Positions 5,332 to 45,256 of a stretch of DNA of 59,750 nucleotides are shown piece by piece. The stretch spans positions 1-59,750 of the forward strand of contig JALHQL010000007.1 of the NCBI GenBank assembly GCA_022841985.1. The letters run 5' to 3'. Below the pieces are notes generated by a model that saw only the letters and a list, made by a program, of their open reading frames with translations, was not told the origin of the DNA and ran no database searches. Made by a program: the position numbers and the translations under genes. Position 1 is the stretch's first letter. Each line of letters starts with the position of its first letter. This DNA comes from Minisyncoccota bacterium. Its GTDB lineage: Bacteria > Patescibacteriota > Minisyncoccia > Phycocordibacterales > Phycocordibacteraceae.

Positions 5332-6093
5332 TTAGTCTTCTTTTCCCCTACCTCTTGTATGATCCTTGTCACCATGATCTTCCCTCTCATCCATATGATC
5401 ATCAGTAAGGTCGAGCTTTTCAAGAATACGCTCATGCTTCTGTAACACCGTTTTCAGGGCGCGCTCGTTTTTATTTCTAATCTCTTTCTTATCGTCGCGA
5501 GAACTTTCACGGCGCTTATTTTCTTCTGAGGTTTTCTTGGAAAGGATTTCAGGAGAGCTGGTTGCAACAGTAGCGGTAGAGGTCGCGACAGACAGCGCTA
5601 CAGACGCCACATCATCGTCCTCAACATCTTTAATCTTCTTCTTCGCTTTAATGCTCTGCTCGCGTATGACCTTGCGTACCTCCTGTTTGAGCATTGAATC
5701 AAGTTTTTTGTCGGTCTCGAGAGACTCCGCCTCTTCAAGGCGTTTCTCAAGCAACCGCGTCTCGAACTTTGCCTCTGCCGCAGGCGAGGTTGCCGTTATC
5801 AGTCGCGCTACCGGCTCAGTCACTCGCGTCTTCACGGGGTACAGAATGTCCCCTGGGAGCGCGCCCTCTGCTGCCAATGATACAGAACCGCCATAGCCGA
5901 TAACAATGACAATCGAGAGAAATGCAGCCTGTGAGCGCTTCGAAAAGAAGAATTGCGACCAGGGTGATAGCATCGGACGCTGCGCGACATTCTCGCGCAT
6001 TTTTATGAGAAGTGATGAGCGCAGCGCTACTCGCTCTGCATCGGAGAGTGTTATCGCGCGAAGCTGTTCAGTGAATTTTGTTAGTGGGTCCAT
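5332..6093 (-). CDS. anti-sigma-factor-like membrane protein (DUF5667-like ectodomain, charged C-terminal tail)
   Basis: Lies 5 nt downstream of the ECF sigma gene. One TM (AAFLSIVIVIGYGGSVSLAA). LPGDILYPVK motif typical of DUF5667 partners of ECF sigmas. K/E/D-rich tail. Confidence 0.55.
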   Translation of the reverse strand: MDPLTKFTEQLRAITLSDAERVALRSSLLIKMRENVAQRPMLSPWSQFFFSKRSQAAFLSIVIVIGYGGSVSLAAEGALPGDILYPVKTRVTEPVARLITATSPAAEAKFETRLLEKRLEEAESLETDKKLDSMLKQEVRKVIREQSIKAKKKIKDVEDDDVASVALSVATSTATVATSSPEILSKKTSEENKRRESSRDDKKEIRNKNERALKTVLQKHERILEKLDLTDDHMDEREDHGDKDHTRGRGKED

Positions 6094-6098
6094 ATAGA

Positions 6099-6593
6099 TT
6101 ATTGCAACAAAGCCCGAAGTCGCTTCACGGCTCGATGCAAGCGCACTGAGACCGTGTTTTCGCTCTCGTTGAGGATCTCGGCAATCTCGCCCGGCGAGAG
6201 ATCTTCAACGAAACGCCATGTGATGAGCTTCTGATCGTCCTCTCCGAGCTCGCGAAGCTTTGCGAGCACGAGCGAGACTTCAGTCTGCTCTTCGACCCTA
6301 CTATCCGCCCCTACAGGTTCAAAACCCGCATCGAGCAGAACGTCAAGCGATGGGGATTTACGTTTTCGATACCAATCGATGACGAGATTGTCGGCAAGGC
6401 GATAGAGAAAAGCGCGCATGTTAAGTATCGAGTCTTGCCGCTGCATATAGGACCACGCCTTGAGAAACACATCTTGCGTCAGATCCTGCGCAAGCTCGCG
6501 TTCGCCTGTCTTGAAATAGCAATGACGAAAGATGGCGTCAGCGTGAGCATCGTAGGCTGATAGCAGTTTCATTTCCAAAGAGGTGTCCTTCAT
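6099..6593 (-). CDS. ECF-type RNA polymerase sigma-70 family factor
   Basis: Region 2 (DLTQDVFLKAWSY...FLYRLADNLVIDWYRKR) and region 4 HTH (LSPGEIAEILNESENTVSVRLHRAVKRLR). Start set to MKDTSLEM (6593) because the longer ORF start (6653) lies inside the hairpin at 6650-6686. Confidence 0.85.
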   Translation of the reverse strand: MKDTSLEMKLLSAYDAHADAIFRHCYFKTGERELAQDLTQDVFLKAWSYMQRQDSILNMRAFLYRLADNLVIDWYRKRKSPSLDVLLDAGFEPVGADSRVEEQTEVSLVLAKLRELGEDDQKLITWRFVEDLSPGEIAEILNESENTVSVRLHRAVKRLRALLQ

Positions 6594-6649
6594 AGAGTGT
6601 GACGTGGCGGCAGCGATTTTCTTACCGTGCGGCAATGGTAGCAGGTATA

Positions 6650-6686
6650 GCACGAAACCGCCCTTCGCACAGGGGCGGTTTCGTGC
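6650..6686 (-). terminator. hairpin downstream of 6702..8255
   Basis: gcacgaaaccgccc-ttcgcaca-ggggcggtttcgtgc gives a 14-bp stem. No clear T-run. Confidence 0.45.
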
Positions 6687-6701
6687 AAACTTGAGCTATG
6701 T

Positions 6702-8255
6702 TTAGTTTGTGGTGACAAAGCTCTGAGTCGAAGTGGTAGCAGTATTTGTGGCTGCATCAACCGACTCAAGCACGTAGTAGTAAGTCGTCGAGGAGGCCAA
6801 TCCTGAAAAGCCCAGGGAGTGACTTGCGACGAGCGAGTTGTTACTAATGGTGAGCGCCGTACCGAGGTTTACCGGCGACGTAGTGCCGTAGTAGATCTTA
6901 CTTGTGGCAGGTTCATTTGTCTGCCACGAGATCATGGCAGTCGTCGAACTGACATTTGATGTGCTGATCGCAGAGATTACCGGAGCAACCGTGTCAGCAA
7001 TCGGAGGCGCGGCAGTGACAAAACTCTGGGTCGAAGTGGTCGACGTATTCAGAGCAGCATCCTTCGACTCAATGACGTAATAATACGTCGTCGACGACGC
7101 AAGACCGGTGAGCGTAAGAGTACGGCCTCCGACGAGCGAATTATTACTTACCGTGAGGGCAGTACCGAGGTTTACCGGCGACGTAGTGCCGTAGTAGATC
7201 TTGCTTGTAGCAGACTCATTTGTCTGCCACGAGATCGAAGCCGATGAAACAGAGATGCCTGATACACTCACTGTCGAAATTACTGGCGCAACCGTGTCCG
7301 CGACAGGAGATGCGGCAGTAATGAAGCTCTGGGTTGAAGTGGTCGACGTATTCAGGGCAGCGTCCTTTGATTCAATGACGTAGTAATACGTTGTTGATGG
7401 CGCAAGACCGGTGAGATTCAGTGTACGGCTTTTGACAAATGAACTGTCACCTACCGTGAGTGCGGTTCCGAGATTTACCGGCGTCGCAGTGCTGAAGTAG
7501 ACCTTGCCCGTAGCACGTTCGTTCGTAGACCATGAGATTGAAGCCGATGCTGTAGAGATGTTTGACACGCTAACGGTAGAAATTATCGGGGCAACAGTGT
7601 CATAGGCAGGCGGTTTCGGAGTATTGTGATCATCATCGTCATCGCGATCTAGAAGATCTTTTATACCCTTCGGAAGCTTCTGGCACTCAGGCACAATCGG
7701 CTTGTCTTCGCCTTTATGCTTCTTGAGCCATCCTGGGGCAATGAGGTGACCTGGCGGGACGATTGCGCAAGGACGTCTATCTTCATTCTTTTTCTCGCGC
7801 TTTTCTCCATCCCGCACTTCTTTAGTCGAGGTGGCGTTATCAAAAGCGAGAGGACGTTCTTTCAGACGCTCTTGGAGTTTCTTGAGAGTTTTTGGACCAA
7901 CGAAGCCAACCTGCTCGATGCCATTATTCTTTTGGAAGCGCTTTACAGCCTCGGAGGTCAAGCGGCCAAAGTATCCGGAAACGATGCCCTCCGGATAAAT
8001 GGAAGGATCAGCGGCAAGAAGGGCCTGCAGCACCGCAACTTGCTCGCCAGCTGAGCCCTGCTTGAGGGTCATCTGGAGTGTCGCGAGGTACTGCTGCTGT
8101 TGCTGCTGTAGCGAATTAATTTGCGTTTGGAGCGTCTGAATTTGCCCGACGAGCGTTGTTGCACTCGTGGTAGAAGTTGTCTGGGCAAAAGCAAGTGCCG
8201 GCGCGAAAACGCCGAGCGCGAGCATGGTTGCCATTACTTTTTTAAATGCTGACAT
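6702..8255 (-). CDS. secreted protein: coiled-coil/Gln-rich segment, PG_binding_1-like domain, three FN3-like repeats
   Basis: Signal peptide MSAFKKVMATMLALGVFAPALAFAQ. The segment LQALLAADPSIYPEGIVSGYFGRLTSEAVKRFQKNNGIEQVGFVGPKTLKKL matches the peptidoglycan-binding repeat. Three ~100-aa DTVAP...ISWxTNExATxKxYY...TTYYYVxES repeats follow. Confidence 0.8.
   Translation of the reverse strand: MSAFKKVMATMLALGVFAPALAFAQTTSTTSATTLVGQIQTLQTQINSLQQQQQQYLATLQMTLKQGSAGEQVAVLQALLAADPSIYPEGIVSGYFGRLTSEAVKRFQKNNGIEQVGFVGPKTLKKLQERLKERPLAFDNATSTKEVRDGEKREKKNEDRRPCAIVPPGHLIAPGWLKKHKGEDKPIVPECQKLPKGIKDLLDRDDDDDHNTPKPPAYDTVAPIISTVSVSNISTASASISWSTNERATGKVYFSTATPVNLGTALTVGDSSFVKSRTLNLTGLAPSTTYYYVIESKDAALNTSTTSTQSFITAASPVADTVAPVISTVSVSGISVSSASISWQTNESATSKIYYGTTSPVNLGTALTVSNNSLVGGRTLTLTGLASSTTYYYVIESKDAALNTSTTSTQSFVTAAPPIADTVAPVISAISTSNVSSTTAMISWQTNEPATSKIYYGTTSPVNLGTALTISNNSLVASHSLGFSGLASSTTYYYVLESVDAATNTATTSTQSFVTTN
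6705..7601 (-). repeat. three tandem ~303-bp (101-codon) coding repeats
   Basis: Units are 7601-7299, 7298-6996 and 6995-6705 on the minus strand. Long identical DNA stretches occur, e.g. accgaggtttaccggcgacgtagtgccgtagtagatctt in units 2 and 3. Confidence 0.85.
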
Positions 8256-8364
8256 AGGAATTAAAGATGAAGTTAATGTGTAATACACTCGAGCACTACC
8301 TACTGAGACGTTGCAGCAGGCATCGTCTTACAACCTCCAGTATACCAGTAGATATGGTGTTCAT

Positions 8365-9035: not shown

Positions 9036-10270
9036 ATGGTGTGGAGTTGTTCCTCAATCTCGATCAGTCGATCATACTTAACCATTCGCTCTTTTTTCGT
9101 TGGTGCTCCGGCCTTGATGTAATCGCACGAAAGACCGACGGCGAAATCTGAAATAAAGGTATCCATTGTTTCTCCGGAGCGATGCGACGCAAAGAGTTTC
9201 CATCCAGCATTTCGCGCTGCACGCACCGCATTAATACTTTCGGTTACCGTGCCAATCTGATTTGGCTTGATAATACAGGCATTTACGGCCTTTTTCTCTA
9301 TGGCCATGCCAATGCGCGATACATTGGTCACGGTAAGATCGTCGCCCACAATGGATAGAGTTCCACCCAGAGTCTTTTGCAACCTTATAAATCCATCCCA
9401 GTCATCTTCCGCGAGTCCATCCTCGATCGAGATCAGCGGATATTTCTCTGCCAGTGCGGCATACCACTCGATCATATGCGCACTGTCGAGCAAACGTTCT
9501 CCGCCAGACTTCAGTACATACTGCCCTCCTTCATAGAAACTACTTGAAGCGACATCAAGAGCAATGGTGACTTGGTCGGTCGAATATCCTGCATTTTGTA
9601 TAGATGCGACAAGCAAATCAAGCGCTTCGTCGTTACTCGTAAGAGCAGGTGCAAATCCCCCTTCGTCCCCCATCTCGGTACTACAGCCCTTTTGTTCTAA
9701 GAATGATTTCAATAGCGCCATGCACTTTTCCGCAGCGACGACGCGTTCACGCATACTCTTAAAACCAATCGGCGCGAGCATGCACTCCTGAATATCGATG
9801 CCCTCACGTGCGTGCTTCCCGCCATTAATAATATTGAAGAGCGGCACTGGTGATGAAAAGTTTTTCCTGTTATCCAACGAACCCAGATAGGCAAAGAGCT
9901 CCACGCCGTTCTCCTTAGCGTGCGCTCGCGCAAAAGCTACCGAGACTGCGAGAATCGCGTTTGCCCCGAGCCGGCCTTTATTCGGAGTACCATCAAGATT
10001 GCACAGAAAAGCATCGAGTCCTTTCTGGTCGAATTCTTTTCCGACTGTGGCAGCCGCAATCGTTTCATTTACATGGACAATCGCTTCCGATACTCCGCGG
10101 GACGCCCCGCCATTATCGCGCAACTCGTGCGCCTCATGGGCTCCGACACTCGCACCCGATGGTACCGATGCAAGCCCTTTCCCTTTCTGAGTCTCGAGCT
10201 CAACTTCGACCGTCGGATTACCCCGCGAATCTAAAATTTCCCGAGCCTTGATTGTCTGTATCGTTGCCAT
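9032..10270 (-). CDS. eno: enolase
   Basis: IKAREILDSRGNPTVEVE, SVPSGASVGAHEA, GDDLTVTN, IKPNQIGT, SHRSGET. There is a 4-nt overlap with gpmA. Confidence 0.97.
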   Translation of the reverse strand: MATIQTIKAREILDSRGNPTVEVELETQKGKGLASVPSGASVGAHEAHELRDNGGASRGVSEAIVHVNETIAAATVGKEFDQKGLDAFLCNLDGTPNKGRLGANAILAVSVAFARAHAKENGVELFAYLGSLDNRKNFSSPVPLFNIINGGKHAREGIDIQECMLAPIGFKSMRERVVAAEKCMALLKSFLEQKGCSTEMGDEGGFAPALTSNDEALDLLVASIQNAGYSTDQVTIALDVASSSFYEGGQYVLKSGGERLLDSAHMIEWYAALAEKYPLISIEDGLAEDDWDGFIRLQKTLGGTLSIVGDDLTVTNVSRIGMAIEKKAVNACIIKPNQIGTVTESINAVRAARNAGWKLFASHRSGETMDTFISDFAVGLSCDYIKAGAPTKKERMVKYDRLIEIEEQLHTI

Positions 10271-10359
10271 GCAATTTATATATTATTTCGCTTTTCAAGA
10301 TACCATGCGGTTTTATTTTTCTATACAAAATTGGATTGAACATCATATCTGGCAAAACA

Positions 10360-10384
10360 AAAACCGCCCTTGCGGGCGGTTTTT
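10360..10384 (-). terminator. rho-independent terminator after rpmG
   Basis: aaaaccgccc-ttgc-gggcggtttt, flanked by A/T runs. Confidence 0.6.
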
Positions 10385-10393
10385 GTAGAGGAA

Positions 10394-10549
10394 TTATCTC
10401 TTTACCTCCTTGAACGTGACGCGCTTGCGCAGTGTCGGATCGAACTTTTGGAGTTCAATTTTGCGCTCGGTGGTCTTTCTATTCTTACGAGTCCAAATAA
10501 CGTGATTGGATTTCGTGGATTTGAGCCTAAGCAGGCGATCTTGTGACAT
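10394..10549 (-). CDS. rpmG: 50S ribosomal protein L33
   Basis: Not in ORF track (51 aa). MSQDRLLRLKSTKSNHVIWTRKNRKTTERKIELQKFDPTLRKRVTFKEVKR has the L33 pattern (...KNxRxTxxKLELxKYxPxxRKHxxxKExK). Confidence 0.85.
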   Translation of the reverse strand: MSQDRLLRLKSTKSNHVIWTRKNRKTTERKIELQKFDPTLRKRVTFKEVKR

Positions 10550-10576
10550 GACTAAAATGTAACAGAAAGAGTGCCG

Positions 10577-13252
10577 TTAAGCAACAGGCTCGGTGGCACG
10601 AATACGCTTTGGGGCGCGTTTCTTTACTTCAAAATGTGGCTCATCATTCTTGATGGAGATAGTTACCGTACCGCCTTCCATGACCCCTTGATCGACCATG
10701 AGAGACGCGAGCGGGGTAAGTATCCTGTCCTGGATAGTACGGCGCAGTGGACGTGCACCATATTGAGGATTGTAGCCCTTCTCCGCGAGCCAGCCATGTA
10801 CCGACGGGTCTATCGAAAGCGCGATACGTTTCTGTGCGAGCCGCTTCATCACCTCTTCAACCTGCGTATCGACAATTTTGGCAAGAGCCTCCTTCGCAAG
10901 TACGTCAAAGATAACAATGTCATCGAGACGATTGAGGAACTCTGGGCGGAAGTGCTCCTTGAGCGCACCCATCACCCTTTCTTTTGTCTCTTCGTAGCGA
11001 GTAGCGTCGGTCGCTCCTGCGGTGCCAAAGCCGATATGTGCAAGTCGATTGATAAACTCTCCACCTATATTGCTAGTCAGCACAATAATCGTATTTTTGA
11101 AATTGACTTTGCGCCCCTTGCTGTCGGTAAGGTGCCCCGAGTCGAGCACTTGGAGCAGAATGTTGAACACTTCAGGATGTGCCTTCTCAATTTCGTCAAA
11201 AAGCACCACTGCATAGGGACGATGCCGAATGCGCTCGGTGAGCGAACCGGCTTCTTCGTATCCGACATAGCCTGGCGGCGCGCCAATGAGCTTCGCGACC
11301 GAGTGCTTCTCCATAAATTCGCTCATATCAACCCGGACGAGAGCCTCCGTGTCATTGAACATGAACTCTGCGAGTTTCTTTGAAAGTTCAGTTTTCCCGA
11401 CGCCAGTCGGACCAAGGAAAAGGAAGGAACCTATCGGGCGATTCGGATCGCTAATCCCGACACGCGAGCGCTTTACCGCATCGGTAATCTTCTTCACGGC
11501 GATATCCTGGCCGATGATGCTTTGCTTGAGCGCCGCTTCCATGCGCGAGAGTTTTACAGCCTCTTCTTCAAGCATGCGAGAAACCGGAATGCCAGTCCAG
11601 CGAGCGACGACACCAGCAATGTCTTGTTCCGCTACCTCTTCGTTCAGCACACGTCGCGACTTTTGTAATGTCTTCAAACGTTTCAATTTCATCTCGAGAT
11701 CTTTCTGAATATGCGGAATGCGCCCATACCGAATCTCTGCGACGGTGCCAAGATCGGCGGAAGCTTCGGCATTGTCCGCCTGTATCTTCAATGCCTCAAG
11801 CTCGGTCTTCGCGGCGCGAATACCGATGAGAACCTCTTTCTCATTCTTCCACTTGAGCTCAAGCTCACTGGTCTTCTCTTTCAGATCGGCAACTTCTTTT
11901 TCGATGACTTTGATGCGTTCTTTAATTTCTTTGGCGTGTTCGCCCTCCAGATCTTTTTGAAGCGCCTGCCGTTCAATCTCAAGACGACGAATCTTGCGGT
12001 CAGTCTCTTCGAGAAGGGGCGGCTTGTTTTCAAGCGCAATGCGCAGCCCTGACGCCGCTTCATCAATGAGGTCGATGGCTTTGTCTGGAAGGAAACGGTC
12101 GCTGATATAGCGCGACGAGAGTTCGACCGCCGCAACAACGGCACCGTCGGTGATGCGCACCCCGTGGAAAAGTTCGTATTTGTCGCGAAGTCCGCGCAAG
12201 ATGGCGATGCCATCTTCAACCGAAGGCTCCTGTACAAACACCGACTGGAAGCGGCGTGTGAGCGCGGCATCCTTCTCGATATATTTCTGGTATTCCTTCA
12301 AGGTCGTTGCACCTACAACACGAATTTCGCCGCGTGAGAGTGCAGGTTTGAGCATATTTGAAGCATCGAGAGAGCCTTCGGCGCCGCCCGCACCCACGAG
12401 CGTATGAAGCTCGTCGACGAAGAGAATGATCTTCCCTTCCGCGCGCTCCACTTCTTTCATCACATTTTTCATCCGTTCTTCGAACTCGCCACGGTATTTT
12501 GTACCGGCGATCATGAGACCGAGATCAAGAGAGAGCAGATCTTTGCCCTTGAGCGATTCGGGAACGTCTCCCGCCGCCATGCGCGCGGCAAGTCCTTCAG
12601 CTATAGCTGTCTTTCCAACACCTGCTTCACCGATAAGAACCGGATTATTTTTGGTACGTCGCGAGAGAATCTGGATGACTCGATTAATCTCGATGTCACG
12701 GCCGATGACCGGATCAAGCTTATTTTCAGCGGCAAGCTTGTTGAGATTGCGTGCATACTTAGCGAGTGCACGGAAACGCTTGGGCTCTACGGTCTGACCA
12801 TCCTTTGAACTCTTGAGTTCTTTGAGGACAGCGAGCGCCGCATTCTGAGTTATCGAAAAGCGTGTAAAAATATCAGCAGCCGCACCTGGATGTTCCATGA
12901 TCGCAAGGAAGAGGTGTTCGGTGCCAACGAACGTATCGTTCATACGCGCAGCGATCTTTCCCGATGCTTCAAGCGCCTGAGCGAGATCTGGAGTGAGATA
13001 AATCTGATAAGAAGGTGAAAGCACCGAGGCGTTCTCAGGCGTCTCAAGATGTTCATGCACCGTATCTGCGAGCAGATTGGTATCGATTTCCATCCGATCA
13101 AGCATCGAGAAGACAAGCGACTCCTCTTGAAGCACGAGCGCAGCGAGCAAATGGAGTGGCGAGACGTGATTTTGTCCACGCTCTATCGCAAGTTCATGTG
13201 CGCGACGTACGGCTTCTTTTGCTTTAGTAGTAAAATTGTGAAAAGGAGGCAT
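10577..13252 (-). CDS. clpB: ATP-dependent chaperone ClpB
   Basis: Clp-N repeats, two AAA+ modules ([10 protein letters not shown] and [10 protein letters not shown] Walker A), a long coiled-coil middle domain between them, and RPEFLNRLD. Confidence 0.95.
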
Positions 13253-19307: not shown

Positions 19308-19360
19308 AAGCGTTGGGAAACGGTTTATTGTCATCAATCTATAGTGAAAGGAGGCATCTT

Positions 19361-20626
19361 ATGTGGATCTTAAAGATGTTGCTTTCCCCTTTGTTTTTCT
19401 TCATGAAGTGGCTCGCGGAAGAGAATGTTCTCTTTACCGCGTGTAAAGAGGGTACGGTAAAAGCCGTAATGGCAAGCGACTCGTTCGATCACTTCATTAT
19501 GAGTTCCGCTGGATACCACTTAAATGATCCAAGGAAAAAAGGCGGGAAAGCCAAGCTCTACATAGAAAATATTACGGTTAAAAGTACCGGTGGCGACGGG
19601 AAAGAAACACAGACAGTGATAGAAATCCCAGACTGGGAGGTTCTCTACCATGGGAAAGGTAACACTCTAGGGTTTACCGAATTTGAGGATAGCTATTATG
19701 ACGAACGTGGCTGGATTCTCAAACATCTCGGCCTCTACTGGATCGGATGGCCATGGTCACATAATGTCTATGTGTATCAGTTCGAGTGGAACGAAACCAT
19801 TACTAACGAAACATCTGGAGAGGAGGAAATCCTCCCGCTGAGTAACCCGTCCGACTTTATCTTTGTGAAAGATTTTGTCTATGCTATCAAAACCGTTGGA
19901 GCAGAGACCAGAGACCGTCTCACAACTGATGAGCTCACGTTCGTCACAATCGCGATACGAAATCCGTATCGCGCTTTGTTCTCAGGTGAGGACTGGTTAC
20001 TGCGTACCACTGCTGATATCAACCGGCATGTACGAAACTTTATCGGGAGCAGAAACTACGCGGAATTAATTTCTCCCGTCGAAGATGACGACGATAGTTC
20101 CTCGGGGGGGAAATCCAATGGGAGCGAACTGGGAACTACTGAGTCAAGGGAAAAAAGTGCCAAGTTACAAAGATACTGGGCACAATTCTCTGATCCCATT
20201 ATTGAGCTTAATGAACATTTACCTGACGATAAGCCCGGGAGAAAACCTTTTGGTCTGCAAGGCCGATATGGGGTAGAGATACGTGGTGCCGCATTACAGA
20301 CAATAGATCTCTCCGGCGAAAGGAAAGAAGAGCTTGAAAAAGCCGCAACGAAAATATATGTTGCTCGACAAGAAGCAAAAGCGATCAGACTTACCGCTGA
20401 CGCAACTGGATACTCCATCCAAGTAACAGGTACGAGAGAAGCGGAAGCTCTTGCTTCACGACTCGCAATTATCAAAGCGAACGGCGACGCAGGAATGCTA
20501 CTTGCTCAACTCGATGCGATCCAAGCCGCAAAAGGTGCAGGAAGTCAGGTTATTTGGGCGAACAATCCATTTGCCCCAATTACAGGACTACTAAAACCTG
20601 AAGTGAAAGGGGGCGAGACGTCATGA
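19361..20626 (+). CDS. SPFH/band-7 domain protein with large insertions
   Basis: Start moved to ATG 19361, 7 nt after AAAGGAGG. N-terminal hydrophobic segment. SPFH-like core (...ETRDRLTTDELTFVTIAIRNPYRALF...VRNFIGSRNYAELIS...GVEIRGAALQTIDL). C-terminal Ala/Glu-rich helices (ARQEAKAIRLTADATG...REAEALASRLAIIKANGDAG). Confidence 0.7.
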   Translation: MWILKMLLSPLFFFMKWLAEENVLFTACKEGTVKAVMASDSFDHFIMSSAGYHLNDPRKKGGKAKLYIENITVKSTGGDGKETQTVIEIPDWEVLYHGKGNTLGFTEFEDSYYDERGWILKHLGLYWIGWPWSHNVYVYQFEWNETITNETSGEEEILPLSNPSDFIFVKDFVYAIKTVGAETRDRLTTDELTFVTIAIRNPYRALFSGEDWLLRTTADINRHVRNFIGSRNYAELISPVEDDDDSSSGGKSNGSELGTTESREKSAKLQRYWAQFSDPIIELNEHLPDDKPGRKPFGLQGRYGVEIRGAALQTIDLSGERKEELEKAATKIYVARQEAKAIRLTADATGYSIQVTGTREAEALASRLAIIKANGDAGMLLAQLDAIQAAKGAGSQVIWANNPFAPITGLLKPEVKGGETS

Positions 20627-21414
20627 GTATGATTGCAGAGATAAGTTTATTCTCGTGGATTATATTCGGGATTGCTTTCCTTCTCATAATTGGTCTAGGT
20701 CTGCTCATTGCTCTTCGAATGAAAAATCCGCACTCAAAGAGAAAAGAACATGAGCAGGCGCGACTTGACAAGAAAAGAGGGATTGCTTCACCTCTTACTA
20801 CTTCCGATGTGGAAAGTAAGACACGTTTTGAGCGGTATACAGAAAGACTCAAAACTTGGAAGAAAGTGTTCTTGAATCTGGGAATCGTCATCGTCGGGAT
20901 ATTCCTCTGGTACATGGTGCCTACTACTGGAATACACCCCGCTGACGTAAGCTCTTGGAGTAAAGAACATTGGCTCCAAGTCCTCATCGTCTATGGTATC
21001 GTCGCCAGCCTCATCTGGCTTAATGCGGATGAGAAATCAGCAAAAGTGCTTCAGAAAGTTCTAGTCGGAGGGGTATTCATACTCCTCTTCGTCCTCCCAA
21101 GCTGGTTTTGGATTTCGAGTCCGTCGAGCACGGCACAAAGCAACAGCTCGCGCTTCGAGACTCCTCTCACGAGCTTGCCGAAGTCGGACTGGCCCAAAAT
21201 GGCTATACCAGCGGGCAGAAGTGCACACATTTCAGTTCCTCCGTACATGCATGCGGACGTAATTGGAGACGGTGTTACGCTCGAAAACGTGTATCAGAAC
21301 GGACAAGTGTGTGCGTTCGGGAAGCCATGCGCCGATGGCCCGCTTAAGTTTATACGCGCAACAAACGGAACAGGAAGAGAGATTGTTATCTCTTACGCCT
21401 TCGTTCCGATTTGA
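20623..21414 (+). CDS. polytopic membrane protein (4 predicted TM) with C-terminal soluble domain; partner of the SPFH gene
   Basis: ATGA overlap with the SPFH gene. Hydrophobic helices at residues ~8-32, ~83-100, ~118-135 and ~147-165. ~90-aa C-terminal domain. No family recognised. Confidence 0.7.
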   Translation: MSMIAEISLFSWIIFGIAFLLIIGLGLLIALRMKNPHSKRKEHEQARLDKKRGIASPLTTSDVESKTRFERYTERLKTWKKVFLNLGIVIVGIFLWYMVPTTGIHPADVSSWSKEHWLQVLIVYGIVASLIWLNADEKSAKVLQKVLVGGVFILLFVLPSWFWISSPSSTAQSNSSRFETPLTSLPKSDWPKMAIPAGRSAHISVPPYMHADVIGDGVTLENVYQNGQVCAFGKPCADGPLKFIRATNGTGREIVISYAFVPI

Positions 21415-21433: not shown

Positions 21434-21475
21434 AAAAGGGCTACACGACAATGTCGTGTAGCCCTTTTTCTTTTT
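21434..21475. terminator. bidirectional rho-independent terminator between convergent operons
   Basis: aaaa-gggctacacgac-aat-gtcgtgtagccc-tttttcttttt. Confidence 0.75.
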
Positions 21476-21493: not shown

Positions 21494-21772
21494 TTATCTA
21501 GTTCCTTGTATTGTGTTTTGAATGTCTGGCTGATTAAAAGTCCCGAGCGCGACATTGATAATCCCGTAAGCGCCAAAGATAACTACGAGTCCGATAAGAC
21601 CCCAGAGGATAGCCTGCTTCCCTTCCGCGCGACTACCTTCGTCTCCTGCATCTTTGATGAATACAAATACCCCCCAAAGGAAAACGACAAACGCGCCCGC
21701 CGAGAGAAGCAGAATTATCGGATTGATAATCTCTGCAACGACATTTGAGAGAAACTCGTTAAGAACGGACAT
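21494..21772 (-). CDS. VirB2/TrbC-like two-TM mini-protein, paralog 6 of 6 (last in operon)
   Basis: 92 aa. Layout is TM1 - acidic/basic loop - TM2: FLWGVFVFIKDAGDEGSRAEGKQAILWGLIGLVVIFGAYGIINV. Confidence 0.75.
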   Translation of the reverse strand: MSVLNEFLSNVVAEIINPIILLLSAGAFVVFLWGVFVFIKDAGDEGSRAEGKQAILWGLIGLVVIFGAYGIINVALGTFNQPDIQNTIQGTR

Positions 21773-21774
21773 TA

Positions 21775-22140
21775 TTATCTAAGACCGCTTGCGCCAGGTA
21801 GATTCGTCTGAGTTTGATTGAGGCTGACGGAACCCGTAAGAATATTCACAAGACCCCACACTGAAACCATCACGAAAAAACCTATAAGACCCCAGAGCAT
21901 GAGGTTCTTTCCCTTTTCTTTAACCTCCTCTGAGTTAGCACCAAGAATAAACGCCTCGAACGCACCCCAGACGAAGACGATAAATGCGACAGCAAAAATT
22001 ACCGGAACAAGAACGTTGTTGATGGTATTGATAACGAAATTGCCGACGCCAGTGATGTTGGTGATTGTCTGTGCGGAAGAAACAAATGGTACTGCAAATG
22101 AAGCGAGAATTCCTGAAGTGAGGGCAAGAGCTTTTTTCAT
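21775..22140 (-). CDS. VirB2/TrbC-like two-TM mini-protein with signal peptide, paralog 5
   Basis: Start moved to MKKALALTSGILASFAVPFVSSAQ (ATG 22140). Core FVWGAFEAFILGANSEEVKEKGKNLMLWGLIGFFVMVSVWGLVNIL. Confidence 0.75.
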   Translation of the reverse strand: MKKALALTSGILASFAVPFVSSAQTITNITGVGNFVINTINNVLVPVIFAVAFIVFVWGAFEAFILGANSEEVKEKGKNLMLWGLIGFFVMVSVWGLVNILTGSVSLNQTQTNLPGASGLR

Positions 22141-22225
22141 AATGTGGATAAGTGAATAATGCAATGGTAATTGTAACGTCCTTACTGGCAGAGTCAATTA
22201 TATTCTTTCCCCTCGTGGGGACATC

Positions 22226-22531
22226 CTAAATTGAGACTTGCGGCGAAGGCGGAGCCAAATTCCCCGGACTCCCTGGGCCAACGCCGAGAGTAACACCGAC
22301 CATAAACACAAGCCCCCAGACCGAGACAATGACGACAAAACCGATGATGCTCCAGAGAACGAATTGCCGGCCTTCAGCACGCTTGTCGTCGCTATCGGCT
22401 CCAAGAATAAAATAAGTATAGACGCCCCAAAGGAATGTGAGGAGCGCTATCGCCATCAAGACTGGCACAAAAATGAAATTGATAATGCCCATAATATCGT
22501 AGGCATACCTTTGTAGAATGGTCAGATTCAT
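22226..22531 (-). CDS. VirB2/TrbC-like two-TM mini-protein, paralog 4
   Basis: Core FLWGVYTYFILGADSDDKRAEGRQFVLWSIIGFVVIVSVWGLVFMV. Confidence 0.75.
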   Translation of the reverse strand: MNLTILQRYAYDIMGIINFIFVPVLMAIALLTFLWGVYTYFILGADSDDKRAEGRQFVLWSIIGFVVIVSVWGLVFMVGVTLGVGPGSPGNLAPPSPQVSI

Positions 22532-22540
22532 ATGCTATGA

Positions 22541-23053
22541 CTATCTCGGCGGGAGTCCCCCAAACGGCGAGAATGACGTCGGAGGACGCGGCATGAACCC
22601 CGTGAGACCAAACGTATTTACAACGACATTCACAAGTCCCCATACCGATATCATGACCGCAAATCCTATGAGACCCCAGAGGATAATCTTATGGCCACTC
22701 TTGACAGCCTCTTCATCACCGCTAGATAAAATATAAGCCTTAGCAACGCCGTAGAGGAATACTATGAAGGAAATAGCGAAAAGAAGCGGGACTAATACAC
22801 TGTTGATAATGCTGATGATCCTAACTCCGAGGCCGCCAATACCGAACGATCCTCCACCAAATCCAAACATACCTCCAGGCACGACCGAGACGCCGCCTGA
22901 GTAAAATTGAGATGTCTGTGAACTAACGCCTGGTATTGTCTGCGTGAAAGTTTGTTGTTGCGCCGGTTGAGCAAACACCAGTGTAGGCGCAAGGAGCACT
23001 CCAAACCCTACAACAATACGTGCTATTAATTTCATATGCCGTAAGTATCGCAT
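22541..23053 (-). CDS. VirB2/TrbC-like two-TM mini-protein with signal peptide and Gly-rich N-domain, paralog 3
   Basis: Signal MKLIARIVVGFGVLLAPTLVFAQ. Core FLYGVAKAYILSSGDEEAVKSGHKIILWGLIGFAVMISVWGLVNVV. Confidence 0.75.
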   Translation of the reverse strand: MRYLRHMKLIARIVVGFGVLLAPTLVFAQPAQQQTFTQTIPGVSSQTSQFYSGGVSVVPGGMFGFGGGSFGIGGLGVRIISIINSVLVPLLFAISFIVFLYGVAKAYILSSGDEEAVKSGHKIILWGLIGFAVMISVWGLVNVVVNTFGLTGFMPRPPTSFSPFGGLPPR

Positions 23054-23054
23054 A

Positions 23055-23339
23055 TTATCTTGCAGTAGGCGTGATACCGAGAGTGAACAACAAGATATTC
23101 ACAAAACCCCAGACCGAAAAGAGCACCACCATACCGAGAATTCCCCAAAAAATAAATTGCCGGCCTTCAGCGCGCTTGTCTTCGTTGTCTTGATTAAGGA
23201 AGAAATAGCTTATAACACCCCAAATGAAAACGCCGAAAGCAAGCGTGGTGATGACTGGTATAGCGATAGTATTAAGAGCTCCGATGATGCCCGTAGAACC
23301 ACTGCCAATGAATTGTGCAAATGTCATATCAGTTGCCAA
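23055..23339 (-). CDS. VirB2/TrbC-like two-TM mini-protein, paralog 2
   Basis: Core FIWGVISYFFLNQDNEDKRAEGRQFIFWGILGMVVLFSVWGFVNIL. Confidence 0.75.
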   Translation of the reverse strand: MATDMTFAQFIGSGSTGIIGALNTIAIPVITTLAFGVFIWGVISYFFLNQDNEDKRAEGRQFIFWGILGMVVLFSVWGFVNILLFTLGITPTAR

Positions 23340-23874
23340 CAGAAATCGCCTGTACGGTCGCCTGAATTCCTAGAGATATCGCTTGTGAACCAAGGAGAAT
23401 TAACGCGCCGATGACAGTCCAGAGAAGTGCCTTCTTCGCCTCGGTAATCTTCGTTTCGCTTCCTTGCGCTACAACGAACAGGTAACCGACATACACCAGC
23501 ATTAAGATAACGGCTATGGCACCGATTTGAATCACAAACTCCAAGATTCTATTGAGAAACTGCATCAAGCAAGTACCATTTGGGGTGCAGTCGCCAGTAT
23601 TGAGCGGATTGATGAGGGTTATATTCGCGCCAGGGATGTTATTTGCACTTGATTGAACTGGAGAGACATTGTTGACCGATGACTGTGTATTTCCCGACGG
23701 CGTAAGCACTGAGGTGCAGTTTCCGCTTATATTAAAGTTGGACATGCTGCACCTGGAGCCGATGGGACAATCAGCATCGGACCTGCACGATGATGACAAT
23801 GCTTGTGCCTGCGCAGAGGGTGCTGCGCCCACCGCGAGTATCACAAATAGCAACGTGGCGAAAAAGAAACGCAT
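23329..23874 (-). CDS. VirB2/TrbC-like protein with signal peptide and Cys-rich N-domain, divergent paralog 1
   Basis: Signal MRFFFATLLFVILAVGAAPSAQA and a Cys-rich ~90-aa segment. Then IGAIAVILMLVYVGYLFVVAQGSETKITEAKKALLWTVIGALILLGSQAI, with the same TM-loop-TM layout. Confidence 0.7.
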   Translation of the reverse strand: MRFFFATLLFVILAVGAAPSAQAQALSSSCRSDADCPIGSRCSMSNFNISGNCTSVLTPSGNTQSSVNNVSPVQSSANNIPGANITLINPLNTGDCTPNGTCLMQFLNRILEFVIQIGAIAVILMLVYVGYLFVVAQGSETKITEAKKALLWTVIGALILLGSQAISLGIQATVQAISVGN

Positions 23875-23876: not shown

Positions 23877-25187
23877 TTATTGCTCGAGAAGCGCGTTCAA
23901 AGAACGCTTGGCGTCGGTGAGTGCCGTATCAGGCTTTGAGCGACCGCTTATCACATTGCCAATCATACCCGAGAAGACACGGTCGACATCGATAGATGTT
24001 GGGGACAGCCAGCCCCTGCTGTAAAGCGCAGCGGGGTATGAGACTGCGGCAATAGGATCAGAAGGAGGCACCTTCGCGAGCTCATTTAAGGTCGCTGGCG
24101 CGAGTCCGGTTGCTGCGGCTGCGGCAACTTGCGCGCTCGAATTAGCAAACAGCAAAGCGGTTTGGTATGCACCATTTGTATTCTTTGCTCCATGCGGAAT
24201 CATAAACGCATACACGAGACCATAGACGCTCTTTGCTTGTGCAAGCGCACTCTGCGGCACCGGCGTCACATTAAAATTGAGATTTGGATTTGCCGCTTGC
24301 AGATAACGTGCTTCAGAAACATACCCGAGATAGAGCGCGAGATCACCCGCAAGAAACATTTGTGTAGAGTTCGAGAGCGAAGTATTCCACGTGTACGAGA
24401 CCTTCGAGGGGTCAGCAAATTGAGTATAGAAGCCGAGCACTGCCGATCCGGACGATGAATTTTTTGATGATCCTTCGCCAAGATCGGCAACCAGGTTGCC
24501 ATTTGTCGAATACAAAGACATCGGAATTCCCTGCTGCAGAAATAGCGTGGAGAGGATTCCTCGCGCATTATTGACATTATCGTAGGTCCCAAGAGCTATG
24601 AGACCACGCGTAATCTGCTGTGCTGGGGTAAGAACGGCTATATTTGGTACAAGACCGATCAGCGCCTCCCATGTGGTGGGCGGTCGCGCGATGCCATTAC
24701 TTGAAAGAATGGAGGTATTTGAAAAGAGTACAAGCGGATCAACAAGAAACGGTATGCCATAATGGCCGACTCCACCCGACGCGGAAAAAAGTTTTCCCTC
24801 ATCAAGAAATGTGTTTCTAAAGAGATTTATAGAGAGCGTTTCAAGCGGTATCGATATGATGAATTTCTTAAGCGAATGAAGCTCCTCCTGAGAGGCGAGG
24901 ATAAGGTCCGGAGAGGCACCGGTCGCTATCGCGATAGCAATATCAGAAGACAGCGTTGCTGGATTTTTCTGTACATACGAAACCTCCTTGAACTCCTCAC
25001 TGGACTGTGCAAGCGCGGTGATGGCTGACTGCATTCCTTCTTTCGGCAGCGTACCCCATATAACGACCGGACCGATTGTATCAGCGCCTCCTCCTGTGCT
25101 TGAATATGTTGCGAAGACAAACAGGCCGGCAAGCGCCGAGAATCCGAATACCCCAAGGAGAATCGTTTGGAAAAGAGATAATTTCAT
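23877..25187 (-). CDS. membrane-anchored extracellular solute-binding-protein-like protein
   Basis: N-terminal TM ILLGVFGFSALAGLFVFA. Then VVIWGTLPKEG...ATGASPDLILASQEEL..., the pattern of family-1 SBPs. No ABC permease or ATPase genes are adjacent. Confidence 0.6.
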   Translation of the reverse strand: MKLSLFQTILLGVFGFSALAGLFVFATYSSTGGGADTIGPVVIWGTLPKEGMQSAITALAQSSEEFKEVSYVQKNPATLSSDIAIAIATGASPDLILASQEELHSLKKFIISIPLETLSINLFRNTFLDEGKLFSASGGVGHYGIPFLVDPLVLFSNTSILSSNGIARPPTTWEALIGLVPNIAVLTPAQQITRGLIALGTYDNVNNARGILSTLFLQQGIPMSLYSTNGNLVADLGEGSSKNSSSGSAVLGFYTQFADPSKVSYTWNTSLSNSTQMFLAGDLALYLGYVSEARYLQAANPNLNFNVTPVPQSALAQAKSVYGLVYAFMIPHGAKNTNGAYQTALLFANSSAQVAAAAATGLAPATLNELAKVPPSDPIAAVSYPAALYSRGWLSPTSIDVDRVFSGMIGNVISGRSKPDTALTDAKRSLNALLEQ

Positions 25188-25720
25188 GGTGAGGTAAAGA
25201 CGATCCCGTAATGATGCGGCCCCGCGCGGAATGATTTCATTTTATGGAAACCGGCATTGATAAAAAAGTCTTCGGCATCATGCTCAGACACGACTTGTTT
25301 GAGTTCCGGGCCCATGCCGCCGTAGCTACCCGCCCAGTCGACTACCAGAAGTTTACCACCTGATTTTAGCACGCGCTTGATCTCTCCCAGAAGTCCGAAA
25401 CGATTTTCGACCTGGAAGAGTGTATTGGCGAGTATGATGACATCGAGCGACGCGTCGCGCAGGTGCGTACCGCCCGGTTTCTCAATATCGCCCCAGACAG
25501 TATCGATAATGCCCTGATGATGAGCGTGCGTGTTGAGCTTCAAGTGCTTGAGCACATTTTCCTGCACATCAATCGCATAAACTCTGCCGCTATGGCCCAC
25601 CATCGCCGCTGCCGCGCGCGAATAGTGACCGGAACCTGCACCGAAGTCCGCAACTTTCATTCCTTCACGCAAGCCTAACTGCAACACATTTTCACGCGGA
25701 GTACTGAATGAAGCGCTCAT
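25184..25720 (-). CDS. class I SAM-dependent methyltransferase
   Basis: Motif I VADFGAGSGHYS, motif II-like VYAIDVQ, LKSGGKLLVVDW. 4-nt overlap with the downstream gene. Confidence 0.8.
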   Translation of the reverse strand: MSASFSTPRENVLQLGLREGMKVADFGAGSGHYSRAAAAMVGHSGRVYAIDVQENVLKHLKLNTHAHHQGIIDTVWGDIEKPGGTHLRDASLDVIILANTLFQVENRFGLLGEIKRVLKSGGKLLVVDWAGSYGGMGPELKQVVSEHDAEDFFINAGFHKMKSFRAGPHHYGIVFTSP

Positions 25721-25980: not shown

Positions 25981-26068
25981 GGAGGGGTGGCAGAGAGGTA
26001 ATGCATCCGGCTTAAAACCGGACGATGTCGGCAAGACTGCGCGGGTTCGAATCCCGCTCCCTCCGCCA
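25981..26068 (+). tRNA. class II tRNA with anticodon TAA (Leu by anticodon) but Ser-like acceptor and discriminator features
   Basis: Acceptor ggagggg/tccctcc, discriminator G, encoded CCA. D arm gca-gagaggtaa-tgc, anticodon arm tccgg-ctTAAaa-ccgga, 18-nt variable region, T arm gcggg-ttcgaat-cccgc. Confidence 0.8.
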
Positions 26069-37904: not shown

Positions 37905-38699
37905 TTACATCTGCTCCGATAACGGAAGACGCAATTGAGGGGGAACCTTCGGGCCCCAGCATTTTTTGCTGGAATTCCACGGCTTTGTTCCCTCTTTGAT
38001 GTACAGCTTTATGGCAAAACCTATATTCCCATAGATTGAATATGGATTAAAGCCATCCCGCATCGCATCTTCTGCATGAACCAACGTGTTTATTTGAGAA
38101 AAACCAACATCTCCAGGAGTTATCTCCCCCTGAAGAACGTATCCCGTCTTTTCGTTGTAATGTTTCCTCCCTGACTCACAAGCTACGATTTCTTGAATAG
38201 CCAGTGGTGCTTTCTGTAGAAGTCTCCTGGCGAGTTCATTTGCCGCAACTGGATCTGCTACACGATGAACTCGTGCAGGCATTGCGGAGTTTCCAGTCGG
38301 CCTGAATGCCGTTTGATACGCCTTCCAAGCATGAGGGTCTCGCCGGGTATGCTGTGTATACCAATGCCCCACATTCGCTTTTAAAGAAGCAAATATTTCT
38401 CTTTTGGTGGGACGCGGCTGTTGGGGAGGGTTTGGAACGGGAGCAGGAGGAAGGACAGGTTTTATCTCAGCAATACGCTCCGCAGTGATTACAGCTACCC
38501 GATACTTCTCCGACATCTTGCAGAGAGCACGAGCACTCTCTCCAAAACCGTCCCCAGAATTGCAGGGACCGTCGTAGTATGACGGCAGTTTCTTCATGCT
38601 TAGATCATCCTTCGCGTAAGCAAAGGATGGAAATACTTGCCCACCGACGCATGTCAGTGAGATGAATCCCGCGAGAATCATTCTGATGACGGTTGCCAT
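37905..38699 (-). CDS. secreted lysozyme-like / lytic-transglycosylase-like protein
   Basis: Signal MATVIRMILAGFISLTCVGGQVFPSFAYA and a Pro-rich linker. C-terminal IVACESGRKHY...GDVGFSQINTLVH...YGNIGFAIKLY...PW has a catalytic Glu-Ser context resembling SLT/Rpf-type transglycosylases. Confidence 0.55.
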   Translation of the reverse strand: MATVIRMILAGFISLTCVGGQVFPSFAYAKDDLSMKKLPSYYDGPCNSGDGFGESARALCKMSEKYRVAVITAERIAEIKPVLPPAPVPNPPQQPRPTKREIFASLKANVGHWYTQHTRRDPHAWKAYQTAFRPTGNSAMPARVHRVADPVAANELARRLLQKAPLAIQEIVACESGRKHYNEKTGYVLQGEITPGDVGFSQINTLVHAEDAMRDGFNPYSIYGNIGFAIKLYIKEGTKPWNSSKKCWGPKVPPQLRLPLSEQM

Positions 38700-38816
38700 T
38701 ACGTCCTCCGTGGTTTTAATTCAATGCTATGTCTTTGGTGTAAAGACCTTTTTACTGTTATATATAGTATACCATTGAATACAAAATGTCAATACCCCCC
38801 AAACCTGCCAAAAAAC

Positions 38817-38854
38817 GGGGCATATGAGGAAACGATTGTTTCCTCATATGCCCC
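38817..38854 (-). terminator. rho-independent terminator after 38877..39218
   Basis: ggggcatatgaggaaac-gatt-gtttcctcatatgcccc gives a 17-bp perfect stem. It is followed on the minus strand by gtttttt. Confidence 0.75.
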
Positions 38855-38876
38855 GTTCTGTTCAAATCAACGATAC

Positions 38877-39218
38877 TTACACAAACACCGGAGACTTCCT
38901 CCGCGAACGAGAACCGTACCGGGGCTTCGGGATTTCATAATCCTCGGTGTCGTCTACTATCCTTTCTGATATGGGTGTCGCGCGCACCCCCTTCAGATGA
39001 CTTCCCCCGTTTTCCTGAATAATTTTTGCACACTGCCGGCACTGGAATATCTTTGAACCACGATGCTCAAGATCATATACTTGAGTCATCCCGAGTATTT
39101 GCGCTTTGCATTTCGGACAATCTCCGTTTCGCTTGAAATATTCCCACTCCGCATTAAGACGTTGAATGGTCATCCTCAACGCCAACGCAGTTGGACCTAT
39201 TTTTTGAGATTTTGGCAT
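38877..39218 (-). CDS. small zinc-ribbon hypothetical protein
   Basis: 113 aa with CPKC...CRQC. GGAGG RBS (ccaggggaggattatcg ATG). Basic tail. Confidence 0.55.
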   Translation of the reverse strand: MPKSQKIGPTALALRMTIQRLNAEWEYFKRNGDCPKCKAQILGMTQVYDLEHRGSKIFQCRQCAKIIQENGGSHLKGVRATPISERIVDDTEDYEIPKPRYGSRSRRKSPVFV

Positions 39219-39345
39219 CGATAATCCTCCCCTGGTTTGTGAATTAGTGAAAAAATCTATCTGCTTCCATTATACCACATACTGAGCTGGAAGACAACTC
39301 CCCCGATTGCTGGGGATTATATTGTTTTTTTGTTACGATGAGTGC

Positions 39346-39747
39346 GTGAAAACACGTCACAAAACCATCAGCGCCTACAATGCCGGGCAGGCTGCGGCGG
39401 ACAGAGAGATATGCACACTGCTCGCCGCCGAAATCGGATGCACGTTGAAAAACGGAGAAAGCAAGATATGGCACGGCGCATCAGTGTGGTTTTTGGATGG
39501 CAATCCGATTGTAGGTTATAGTAAACAGAAGAAGGGCGTACGCCTCATGTTCTGGAGCGGTGCGGATTTTGGGGAGAACTCTTTAGAGCCAGGAACCGGT
39601 AAATTCAAAGACGCTTCCATTTTCTACAATTTTCCGGAAGAAATACGGGTATCCGCCCTGCGCCGCTGGCTTACAAAAGCGAAAGCAATCCAGTGGGATT
39701 ATAAAAATATCGTTAAGAGAAAAGGTACACTTGTGCGGCTAGGATAG
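39346..39747 (+). CDS. DUF1801 (YdhG-like) domain protein
   Basis: ISAYNAGQAAADREICTLLAAEI...KIWHGASVWFLDGNPIVGYSKQKKGVRLMFWSG. The start is uncertain (GTG 39346 proposed; the ORF track uses TTG 39307). Confidence 0.65.
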   Translation: MKTRHKTISAYNAGQAAADREICTLLAAEIGCTLKNGESKIWHGASVWFLDGNPIVGYSKQKKGVRLMFWSGADFGENSLEPGTGKFKDASIFYNFPEEIRVSALRRWLTKAKAIQWDYKNIVKRKGTLVRLG

Positions 39748-39766
39748 CGTAAACATTAAAATAATT

Positions 39767-45254: not shown

Positions 45255-45256
45255 AG

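Follow-up and report, generated by a model that had tools for sequence, protein, structure and literature searches.

The closest described relatives of the element analyzed here are the VirB2-like pilin arrays of the type IV secretion systems (T4SSs) of Patescibacteria. The element is a tandem array of six minus-strand genes for small pilin-like membrane proteins at positions 21494 to 23874 of a 59,750-nucleotide stretch of contig JALHQL010000007.1 from a Minisyncoccota bacterium, and this whole stretch is called the window below. The T4SS cluster of Southlakia epibionticum likewise contains six sequence-divergent VirB2-like pilins, and these were essential in transposon sequencing (Tn-seq) (PMC10633639, Wang et al. 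2023 Cell; PMC12857230), so that the statement of an earlier sequence-only reading of the window, that the function of such an array is experimentally undescribed, is outdated. The Patescibacteria T4SS was essential for the epibiotic life of the single species tested (PMC10633639). A pilus-like conduit was proposed, not demonstrated, for S. epibionticum, and no precedent exists for a pilus in a monoderm (PMC12857230); the role of the Patescibacteria T4SS has been termed completely unknown (PMC11665869).

A survey of 3,035 Patescibacteria genomes with the Pfam families PF18895 and PF04956 (Quinonero-Coronel et al. 2025 Microb Genom; PMC12102498) found VirB2-like pilins in 1,948 VirB4-positive assemblies, near virB4 in 1,135 of them and away from virB4 in 813 (about 40%). 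Arrays of 2 to 11 genes numbered 441 in 383 assemblies, with a mean identity of 25% and a maximum of 54% between the members, and host-range versatility was proposed by the authors as the purpose of these arrays. According to the same survey, virB4 of Paceibacteria tends to be close to dnaA and dnaN, and the Patescibacteria T4SS is related to the MPF-FATA class, Tenericutes included.

The array in the window is of this already published kind (2020 to 2025). With the Patescibacteria arrays (PMC10633639, PMC12102498), it has in common the family PF18895, the two-helix hairpin, Sec signal peptides in some members, and a low pairwise identity of the cores, which is 22 to 51% among the six proteins and 22 to 25% between the first protein and the other five. 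It differs from them in three respects, which are its position neither in nor near a virB4 cluster, its place in a conserved unit of a methyltransferase gene, a solute-binding-protein (SBP)-like gene, and the six pilin genes beside gyrA, and the fixed one-to-one orthology of its six members across many species. The six genes, numbered by transcription order, are as follows.

23329..23874, minus strand: W1, position-1 pilin-like protein, 181 aa, with signal peptide, Cys- and Asn/Ser/Thr-rich ectodomain, and two-helix core
23055..23327, minus strand: W2, position-2 pilin-like protein, 90 aa, with short N-tail and two hydrophobic segments, without signal peptide
22541..23053, minus strand: W3, position-3 pilin-like protein, 170 aa, with signal peptide, Gly-rich N-domain, core, and Pro-rich C-tail
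22226..22531, minus strand: W4, position-4 pilin-like protein, 101 aa, with Pro-rich C-tail, without signal peptide in the window
21775..22140, minus strand: W5, position-5 pilin-like protein, 121 aa, with signal peptide, best conserved of the six
21494..21772, minus strand: W6, position-6 pilin-like protein, 92 aa, without signal peptide

The sequence-only reading had reported six consecutive minus-strand genes of 92 to 181 aa with gaps between −11 and +28 nt, and the list of open reading frames (ORFs) agrees, the intergenic distances from W1 to W6 being −11, +1, +9, +28, and +2 nt. In this list, W2 starts with a TTG at 23339 (94 aa, 23055 to 23339), but its start is probably the ATG at 23327, 1 nt past the W1 stop, rather than the overlapping TTG. 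Similarly, the start listed for W5 is a TTG at 22197 (140 aa, 21775 to 22197), and the ATG at 22140 (MKKALALT..., 121 aa) is the probable start; the database protein P0004 is W5 in its 121-aa form.

A common core of a helix, a short acidic-then-basic loop, and a second helix can be aligned in all six proteins, all six cores contain two hydrophobic segments, and W5 was modeled by AlphaFold2 as a helical hairpin (H29-68/H71-105) with a core pLDDT of 84 to 93. Hydropathy, alignment, and AlphaFold2 agree in assigning to the array proteins the structure of PF18895, two hydrophobic helices with a short charged loop in about 70 residues, and the VirB2/TrbC-like hairpin topology proposed earlier is upheld by the hydropathy profiles and the W5 model. 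The three peptides given earlier as examples were all present, in W4, W2, and W5, respectively. Signal peptides had been assigned to three of the six proteins, and an additional N-terminal, hydrophobic, signal-peptide-like segment was indeed visible in the hydropathy profiles of W1, W3, and W5, followed by the AxA-like sites SAQA/QA, VFA/QP, and SSA/QT, respectively. The WG/SVWG motif was not shared to the extent initially assumed: it is complete in W2, W4, and W5 and partial in W3 (FLYG) and W6 (GAYG), W1 has neither part of it, and a single W and a single G are invariant across the six.

Each of the six proteins matched PF18895 (T4SS_pilin; gathering cut-off, 26.6 bits), with 34.5 bits for W1, 33.6 for W2, 24.7 for W3, 37.3 for W4, 40.1 for W5, and 36.5 for W6. 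Five were above the cut-off and W3 was slightly below it (E = 2.5e-5), the E-values across the six ranging from 2.5e-5 to 4e-10. Since each protein matched one and the same Pfam family at this level, the resemblance is not a matter of chance, and the T4SS-pilin family of candidate-phyla (CPR) bacteria that had been mentioned in the sequence-only reading does exist and is this one. The second pilin family suggested for a Pfam scan, PF04956 (TrbC/VirB2; cut-off, 27.9 bits), was not reached by any of the six: W1 came closest with 21.7 bits (E = 2.4e-4), and the others had at most 15.3 bits or no match. At least two adjoining, divergent pilin-family genes make up a tandem array, and W1 to W6 do so. 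As judged by these profile matches, the array encodes six VirB2-like "pilin" paralogues, all from PF18895, a family specific to Patescibacteria; it is real, and its first classification was correct.

A profile of the six proteins found 2,406 relatives among 8,000 candidates scored, PF18895 was present in all 120 relatives listed, and the named relatives were Paceibacterota, Kaiserbacteria, Minisyncoccia, or Patescibacteria. When 1.84 billion cluster representatives were scanned by HMMER with the family profile, 25,865 were obtained at an E-value of 0.001 or less. A tblastn search with W6 against 72,556 plasmids gave no real match. In a search of sequencing runs, 7% of the words were found in one drinking-water DNA run and in no RNA run.

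To compare the array between genomes, relatives were collected by homologue look-ups and by a scan of 185,579 species-representative genomes with W5 orthologues. The scan found a W5 orthologue in 138 genomes, and 80 loci were kept, mostly labeled Kaiserbacteria or Paceibacterota; the host of the window is a candidate-phyla bacterium from the Paceibacteria, probably "Ca. Kaiserbacteria." Many metagenome-assembled genomes (MAGs) with the Kaiserbacteria-type locus (L008, L013, L021, L024, L029, and others) are titled "uncultured Candidatus Saccharibacteria bacterium." These titles look wrong, since the gene content and the GyrA identity place these MAGs with Kaiserbacteria/Paceibacteria.

A hidden Markov model (HMM) of the core, applied to 88 sequences (87 fetched loci plus the window), called exactly six array members in 76 of them; in the remainder, the array was truncated at a contig end, had five or seven members, or was detected incompletely by the HMM. 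Five duplicate loci were removed, and 71 arrays, the window and 70 related loci, were analyzed. Here, each position formed an orthologue group of its own, with a mean core identity of 59 to 82% within the groups (82% for position 5 and 75% for position 6) and of 18 to 50% between them, position 1 being the outlier. Compared to their orthologues in the loci L002 and L003, W1 to W6 were 45 to 80% identical (W2, 59 to 72%; W3, 56 to 60%), and the respective values for the housekeeping proteins were 86 to 90% for GyrA and 78 to 82% for IF-2. This indicates that the pilin-like proteins evolve faster than the housekeeping proteins but are nevertheless retained one to one.

The predicted extracellular tails vary between the species. 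The N-domain of position 1 is Cys-rich in 37 of the 71 arrays; the C-terminal tail of position 4 has a length of at least 60 aa in 12 of them, with about 310 aa in the longest case, and contains at least four Cys residues in 13. The position-4 tails were without any Pfam domain. A variable array, as had been proposed from the window itself, exists therefore with respect to the extracellular extensions, but the number and the order of the genes are fixed in six orthologue groups.

Canonical TrbC/VirB2 proteins polymerize with phospholipid into the conjugative pilus and are often cyclized. Like the proteins of the array, A. tumefaciens VirB2 and RP4 TrbC are small and have two hydrophobic helices with a short charged loop between them, and some members have an N-terminal leader. 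An alignment of seven annotated virB2/TrbC-family genes from MPF-T plasmids was compared by hhalign with each positional group, and the position-1 group could be aligned over 64 columns and both helices (probability, 43%; E = 2.5e-4; reversed control, E = 0.077). In addition, one position-1 orthologue, that of L014, passed the PF04956 cut-off with 28.3 versus 27.9 bits. In these comparisons, position 1 is both the most divergent and the most VirB2/TrbC-like member of the array. All seven true virB2 genes are followed by virB3, and six have a virB1-type flank, whereas the genes of the window adjoin neither virB1 nor virB3, and their host is a monoderm.

A further relative comes from Mycoplasma. 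NCBIfam NF045849, the Mbov_0395/MMCAP2_0565 family of pilin-like conjugal transfer proteins of Mycoplasma integrative and conjugative elements (ICEs), was matched by all six proteins, W3 among them, with 18.6 to 35.3 bits. The best E-value was 5.9e-10, that of W6 was 6.7e-9, and the alignments shown covered positions 1 to 79 or 10 to 79 of the 80 profile positions. As these scores are below the equivalog cut-off of 40 bits, W1 to W6 are, by these profile matches, homologues of this family but not equivalogs. A relative with several hairpins, P0272, was named by NCBI after the same family, and no paper on NF045849 turned up in the literature search. The matches suggest that monoderm MPF-FATA-type elements possess a homologue of the PF18895-type pilins. 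The two families are alike in being found in wall-less or monoderm lineages; the Mycoplasma protein, however, is encoded on a mobile element together with conjugation genes, and the array of the window lies on a housekeeping stretch of the chromosome. The virB2 paralogues of Bartonella and Anaplasma are also several divergent tandem VirB2-like genes with surface-exposed variable parts, but these bacteria are diderm pathogens in which immune evasion is the presumed reason for the variation between the copies, whereas the copies of the window are separately conserved orthologues.

It is probable, with considerable room for doubt, that W1 to W6 are heteromeric pilin-like or conduit subunits of a Patescibacteria T4SS with its VirB4 encoded elsewhere. 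Each protein would form a helical hairpin in the cytoplasmic membrane with both termini directed outward and the acidic-then-basic loop in the cytoplasm, and three of the members would use cleavable Sec signal peptides. The six hairpins would act jointly and not as interchangeable copies, as pilin-like or conduit subunits of a Patescibacteria-type T4SS, a system related to those of monoderm bacteria. The extracellular tails that vary and are rich in Cys, Gly, or Pro, chiefly at positions 1, 3, and 4, would be displayed to the host cell. A link to episymbiotic attachment, as proposed in the sequence-only reading, may exist.

Beside the pilin homologies described above, the assignment to a T4SS is supported by several observations: published arrays are found within or near virB4 clusters, the array of S. 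epibionticum is essential, four of five Kaiserbacteria assemblies with an orthologous array (L022, L025, L071, and L086) are listed with a VirB4 "yes" in Table S1 of the survey (PMC12102498), and a family member is located near a VirD4-like protein. The latter is found on the Peribacteraceae contig L179 (3437 to 13296), where a 406-aa pilin-family protein with several hairpins is followed by a 691-aa PKD-domain protein, the VirD4-like coupling protein is encoded 4 kb from the multi-hairpin gene, and RlpA-like DPBB and peptidoglycan-binding proteins are nearby. In the part of Table S1 considered, the other Kaiserbacteria rows were also mostly VirB4 "yes" (PMC12102498).

Several results weigh against this assignment. 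Pfam scans of 56 ORFs found no VirB4, VirB6, VirD4/coupling protein, relaxase, or pilus ATPase in the window, as the sequence-only reading had stated, and no TrsD or VirB3 either, so that a virB4 gene within about 20 genes of the array does not exist there. In about 80 related loci, the 10 kb to either side of the array likewise contained no VirB4-like ORF and no TrsD, VirB3, VirB6, or coupling protein; the large ORFs there coded for SPFH-like proteins, ATP synthase, PPDK, and proteins of unknown function, and a walk anchored at gyrB through 80 metagenome loci, performed without a CPR VirB4 seed, gave neither a Walker-A ORF of at least 400 aa nor a pilin. The fifth array-bearing Kaiserbacteria assembly in Table S1, the incomplete MAG L039, is listed as VirB4 "no," and the literature covered contains no observation of a pilus on any Patescibacterium. 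On the level of the proteins, the groups 2 to 6, and hence W2 to W6, had no profile-profile similarity to canonical VirB2 in the hhalign comparison with the seven sequences. Searches of the PDB with the family profile and with W1 yielded no pilin but only noise (TRPC6, MsbA, and P2X), and Foldseek with the W5 model found nothing in the PDB under E = 1 and generic helical hairpins only, the helical hairpin fold being too generic for a fold search. To our knowledge, no described T4SS uses an SBP-like protein, the conserved neighbor of the array. Finally, natural polypeptides with six hairpins, described below, fit a classical extruded pilus awkwardly.

The lack of T4SS genes nearby, pointed out by the sequence-only reading, is not an anomaly, since the pilins are away from virB4 in 813 of the 1,948 assemblies and since VirB4 is listed for four of the five Kaiserbacteria assemblies in which the orthologous array occurs.

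Information on the arrangement of the subunits comes from natural fusions. Many of the top family members contain 2 to 8 hairpin domains per polypeptide behind one signal peptide, equivalent to 4 to 16 transmembrane helices, with 5, 7, and 8 hairpins in P0129, P0159, and P0144, respectively. DNA sequences from other lineages confirmed in-frame fusions of 2, 4, and 6 hairpins at the syntenic position, as follows.

L006 and L175 (sister clade), GyrA 63 to 64% identical to that of the window: five genes with six hairpins, the third gene two-domain; fusions at 10001-10867 (L175) and 10001-10795 (L006)
L177, GyrA 55% identical to that of the window: 1+2+1+4+1 hairpins; fusions at 9102-9698 and 10001-11128
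L178: 1+2+1+6+1 hairpins; fusions at 599-1246 and 1777-3435

Gene order in L177 was kept as S1, lactamase-B fold, GyrA, methyltransferase, SBP, and array, with 27% identity to the window for the SBP and 30% for the methyltransferase. Six as the universal number in Patescibacteria was rejected, because L177 and L178 have 9 and 11 hairpins and because arrays of 1, 2, 6, and 7 genes occur in part of Table S3 of the survey (PMC12102498); six is fixed within Kaiserbacteria-like genomes, not beyond. The repeat units of P0179 are almost identical, which suggests a recent internal duplication.

Since neighboring hairpins tolerate a covalent linkage, they should sit side by side, an argument of the Rosetta-stone type. 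If both ends of each hairpin face outward, the linkers of the fusions would be extracellular. Polypeptides with up to 16 helices resemble polytopic membrane proteins, and the subunits are distinct and fixed in number and order. Both facts would also agree with T4SS parts that form a heteromeric ring or channel embedded in the membrane, a translocon lining closer to VirB6 or VirB3, instead of an extracellular pilus. The scarcity or absence of VirB6 homologues in some classes (PMC12102498) and the general absence of a pilus from monoderm T4SSs in the literature point in the same direction. Nevertheless, the sequence similarity is to VirB2/TrbC and to a "pilin-like" ICE protein and not to VirB6, and the length and variability of the extracellular tails point to exposure at the surface. 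An AlphaFold2 model of a natural six-hairpin polypeptide, made without an alignment, was too poor (pLDDT 56) to display any ring, its secondary structure alone being usable. Such a ring or channel is possible but rather doubtful.

The alternatives to pilin-like or conduit subunits of a T4SS need to consider also the genes around the array, which are the following.

25981-26068: tRNA-Leu, between the methyltransferase unit and gyrA
25184..25720, minus strand: small S-adenosylmethionine-dependent methyltransferase, 178 aa (Methyltransf_11, E = 2.8e-16), first gene of the putative operon
23877..25187, minus strand: membrane-anchored SBP-like gene, 436 aa (SBP_bac_8/SBP_bac_1, Pfam E = 1.4e-18)
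21434..21468, no strand: bidirectional intrinsic terminator with a 16-bp stem and U/A tracts on either side (terminator scan and sequence)

The SBP-like protein has a single transmembrane segment at residues 3 to 29, which is an N-terminal anchor according to hydropathy, and a weak resemblance to sugar-binding SBPs in the PDB. The methyltransferase gene runs 4 nt into the start of the SBP gene, 2 nt separate the SBP stop from the W1 start, and the terminator closes the array as well as the convergent gene 20623-21414. Because start and stop codons overlap or abut, with a tRNA upstream and a terminator downstream, the methyltransferase gene, the SBP-like gene, and the six hairpin genes are probably one transcription unit from a promoter after tRNA-Leu to the strong terminator. 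The best sigma-70-like match of the region, TTGACT-16-TACAAT (10 of 12), is located at 22170 to 22197 of the minus strand in the 85-nt gap before W5 and could be an internal promoter for W5 and W6; the overall count of sigma-70-like matches was not above that of shuffled sequences.

It is unlikely, but the principal alternative to a T4SS role, that the anchored SBP-like protein and the six hairpins are a T4SS-independent envelope module, a surface complex for binding or uptake or some other envelope structure, and that the "pilin" name reflects a distant ancestry only. Of the 77 loci that could be evaluated, 72 have the SBP-like gene immediately upstream of the array, and it still abuts the array in L006, L175, and L177, lineages with a GyrA of 55 to 64% identity; the methyltransferase was found in 74 related loci with a median identity of 79%. 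The start and stop codons are coupled, the Pfam scans found no ABC permease or ATPase in the window as a partner for the SBP, and T4SS genes were absent within 10 kb in all loci examined. On the other hand, the order of GyrA, S1, and the gene for a metallo-beta-lactamase fold is conserved among the relatives in the same way. Since these housekeeping neighbors keep their order too, SBP synteny alone is weak evidence of a functional coupling, and the overlapping gene boundaries are the better evidence. We know of no transporter family composed of two-helix hairpins and a family-1 SBP. Moreover, the family belongs to virB4 clusters in other classes, where both are essential (PMC12102498, PMC10633639).

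A more far-reaching version, also improbable when taken as a whole, would be that the unit of methyltransferase, anchored SBP-like protein, and pilin array is a distinct functional module that is conserved deep within Paceibacteria-like lineages. This would mean that a fixed heteromer of VirB2-derived hairpins, fused in some lineages, forms an envelope conduit or filament and works with the SBP in the capture or import of host-derived molecules, with or without a T4SS ATPase. The homology to the Mycoplasma ICE protein would then indicate that the subunit is ancestral to the monoderm MPF-FATA systems and not a VirB2 borrowed from diderms.

The six genes could also be equivalent versions of a single major pilin that serve antigenic or host-range variation, as has been put forward for the VirB2 paralogues of Bartonella and Anaplasma. 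This is the reading proposed in the survey (PMC12102498), and it is compatible with the low identity between the array members and with the variation of the extracellular tails between species. In the 71 arrays, however, the same six members recur in the same order, with an orthologue group for each position, the divergence is faster than that of GyrA but one to one, and the Kaiserbacteria array bore no trace of a recent duplication or conversion, making this explanation quite improbable. The heteromeric assembly is favored over antigenic variation because the six-member set is strictly conserved, and this away from virB4. The remaining alternative, that the genes encode small membrane proteins related to phages or toxins, such as the holin-like proteins of lysis cassettes raised by the sequence-only reading, has nothing in its favor beyond size and two-helix topology and can be excluded, as none of the six proteins matched a PHROG, no phage genes are nearby, three of the six have signal peptides and long ectodomains, and the conserved neighborhood is one of housekeeping genes (gyrA, methyltransferase, SBP, racemase, and IF-2).

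Compared to the published arrays, the strict set of six orthologues in Kaiserbacteria, the conserved methyltransferase and SBP partners, and the VirB2-like position 1 are new, as are the fused multi-hairpin relatives and the Mycoplasma ICE homologue, all of them modest additions. The words "solute-binding," "Kaiserbacteria," and "Mycoplasma" do not occur in the text of the survey (PMC12102498), in which the sole passage with "fused" or "fusion" concerns VirB3-VirB4. The locus leaves the general picture of the Patescibacteria T4SS unchanged. It could guide multimer modeling and Saccharibacteria genetics, since the natural fusions tell which subunits sit side by side, and the SBP-like partner and the Mycoplasma ICE homologue are two leads on function and origin.

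The Pfam scan of the 56 ORFs across the window showed an ordinary chromosome, with gyrB, enolase, ClpB, IF-2, RbfA, a glutamate-racemase-like gene, gyrA, S1, Pth, signal peptidase, FtsA, FtsZ, thioredoxin reductase, TsaD, a class-I tRNA synthetase, a sortase, and peptidoglycan-binding proteins. Downstream of the array, two convergent plus-strand genes at 19313 to 21414 encode a 437-aa protein without a Pfam match and a 263-aa protein with multiple transmembrane segments. This flank is variable between genomes, with SPFH/Band_7-like proteins at that position in L007 and L018.

A cluster of envelope and surface genes at 304 to 8288 contains a sortase (1485-2159), a CARDB-domain protein (2230-3021), a peptidoglycan-binding/fn3 protein (6702-8288), and an ECF-type sigma factor with a DUF5667 protein; such a set fits a Gram-positive-like envelope. 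The stretch from 38000 to 48562 has a low GC content (41 to 46% versus about 50%) and is bounded by a large serine recombinase (46872-48494), the gene end of which abuts or overlaps tRNA-Ser (48475-48562). Its cargo consists of a T5orf172/MUG113 protein, an SDH-type ClpP-like protease, DUF6671, and a metal-related DUF305/HMBD protein, and the stretch is probably a mobile element integrated at tRNA-Ser. At the contig start (positions 1 to 60), a G-rich run, which on the minus strand is the poly-proline end of a short open frame, is probably an assembly break point.

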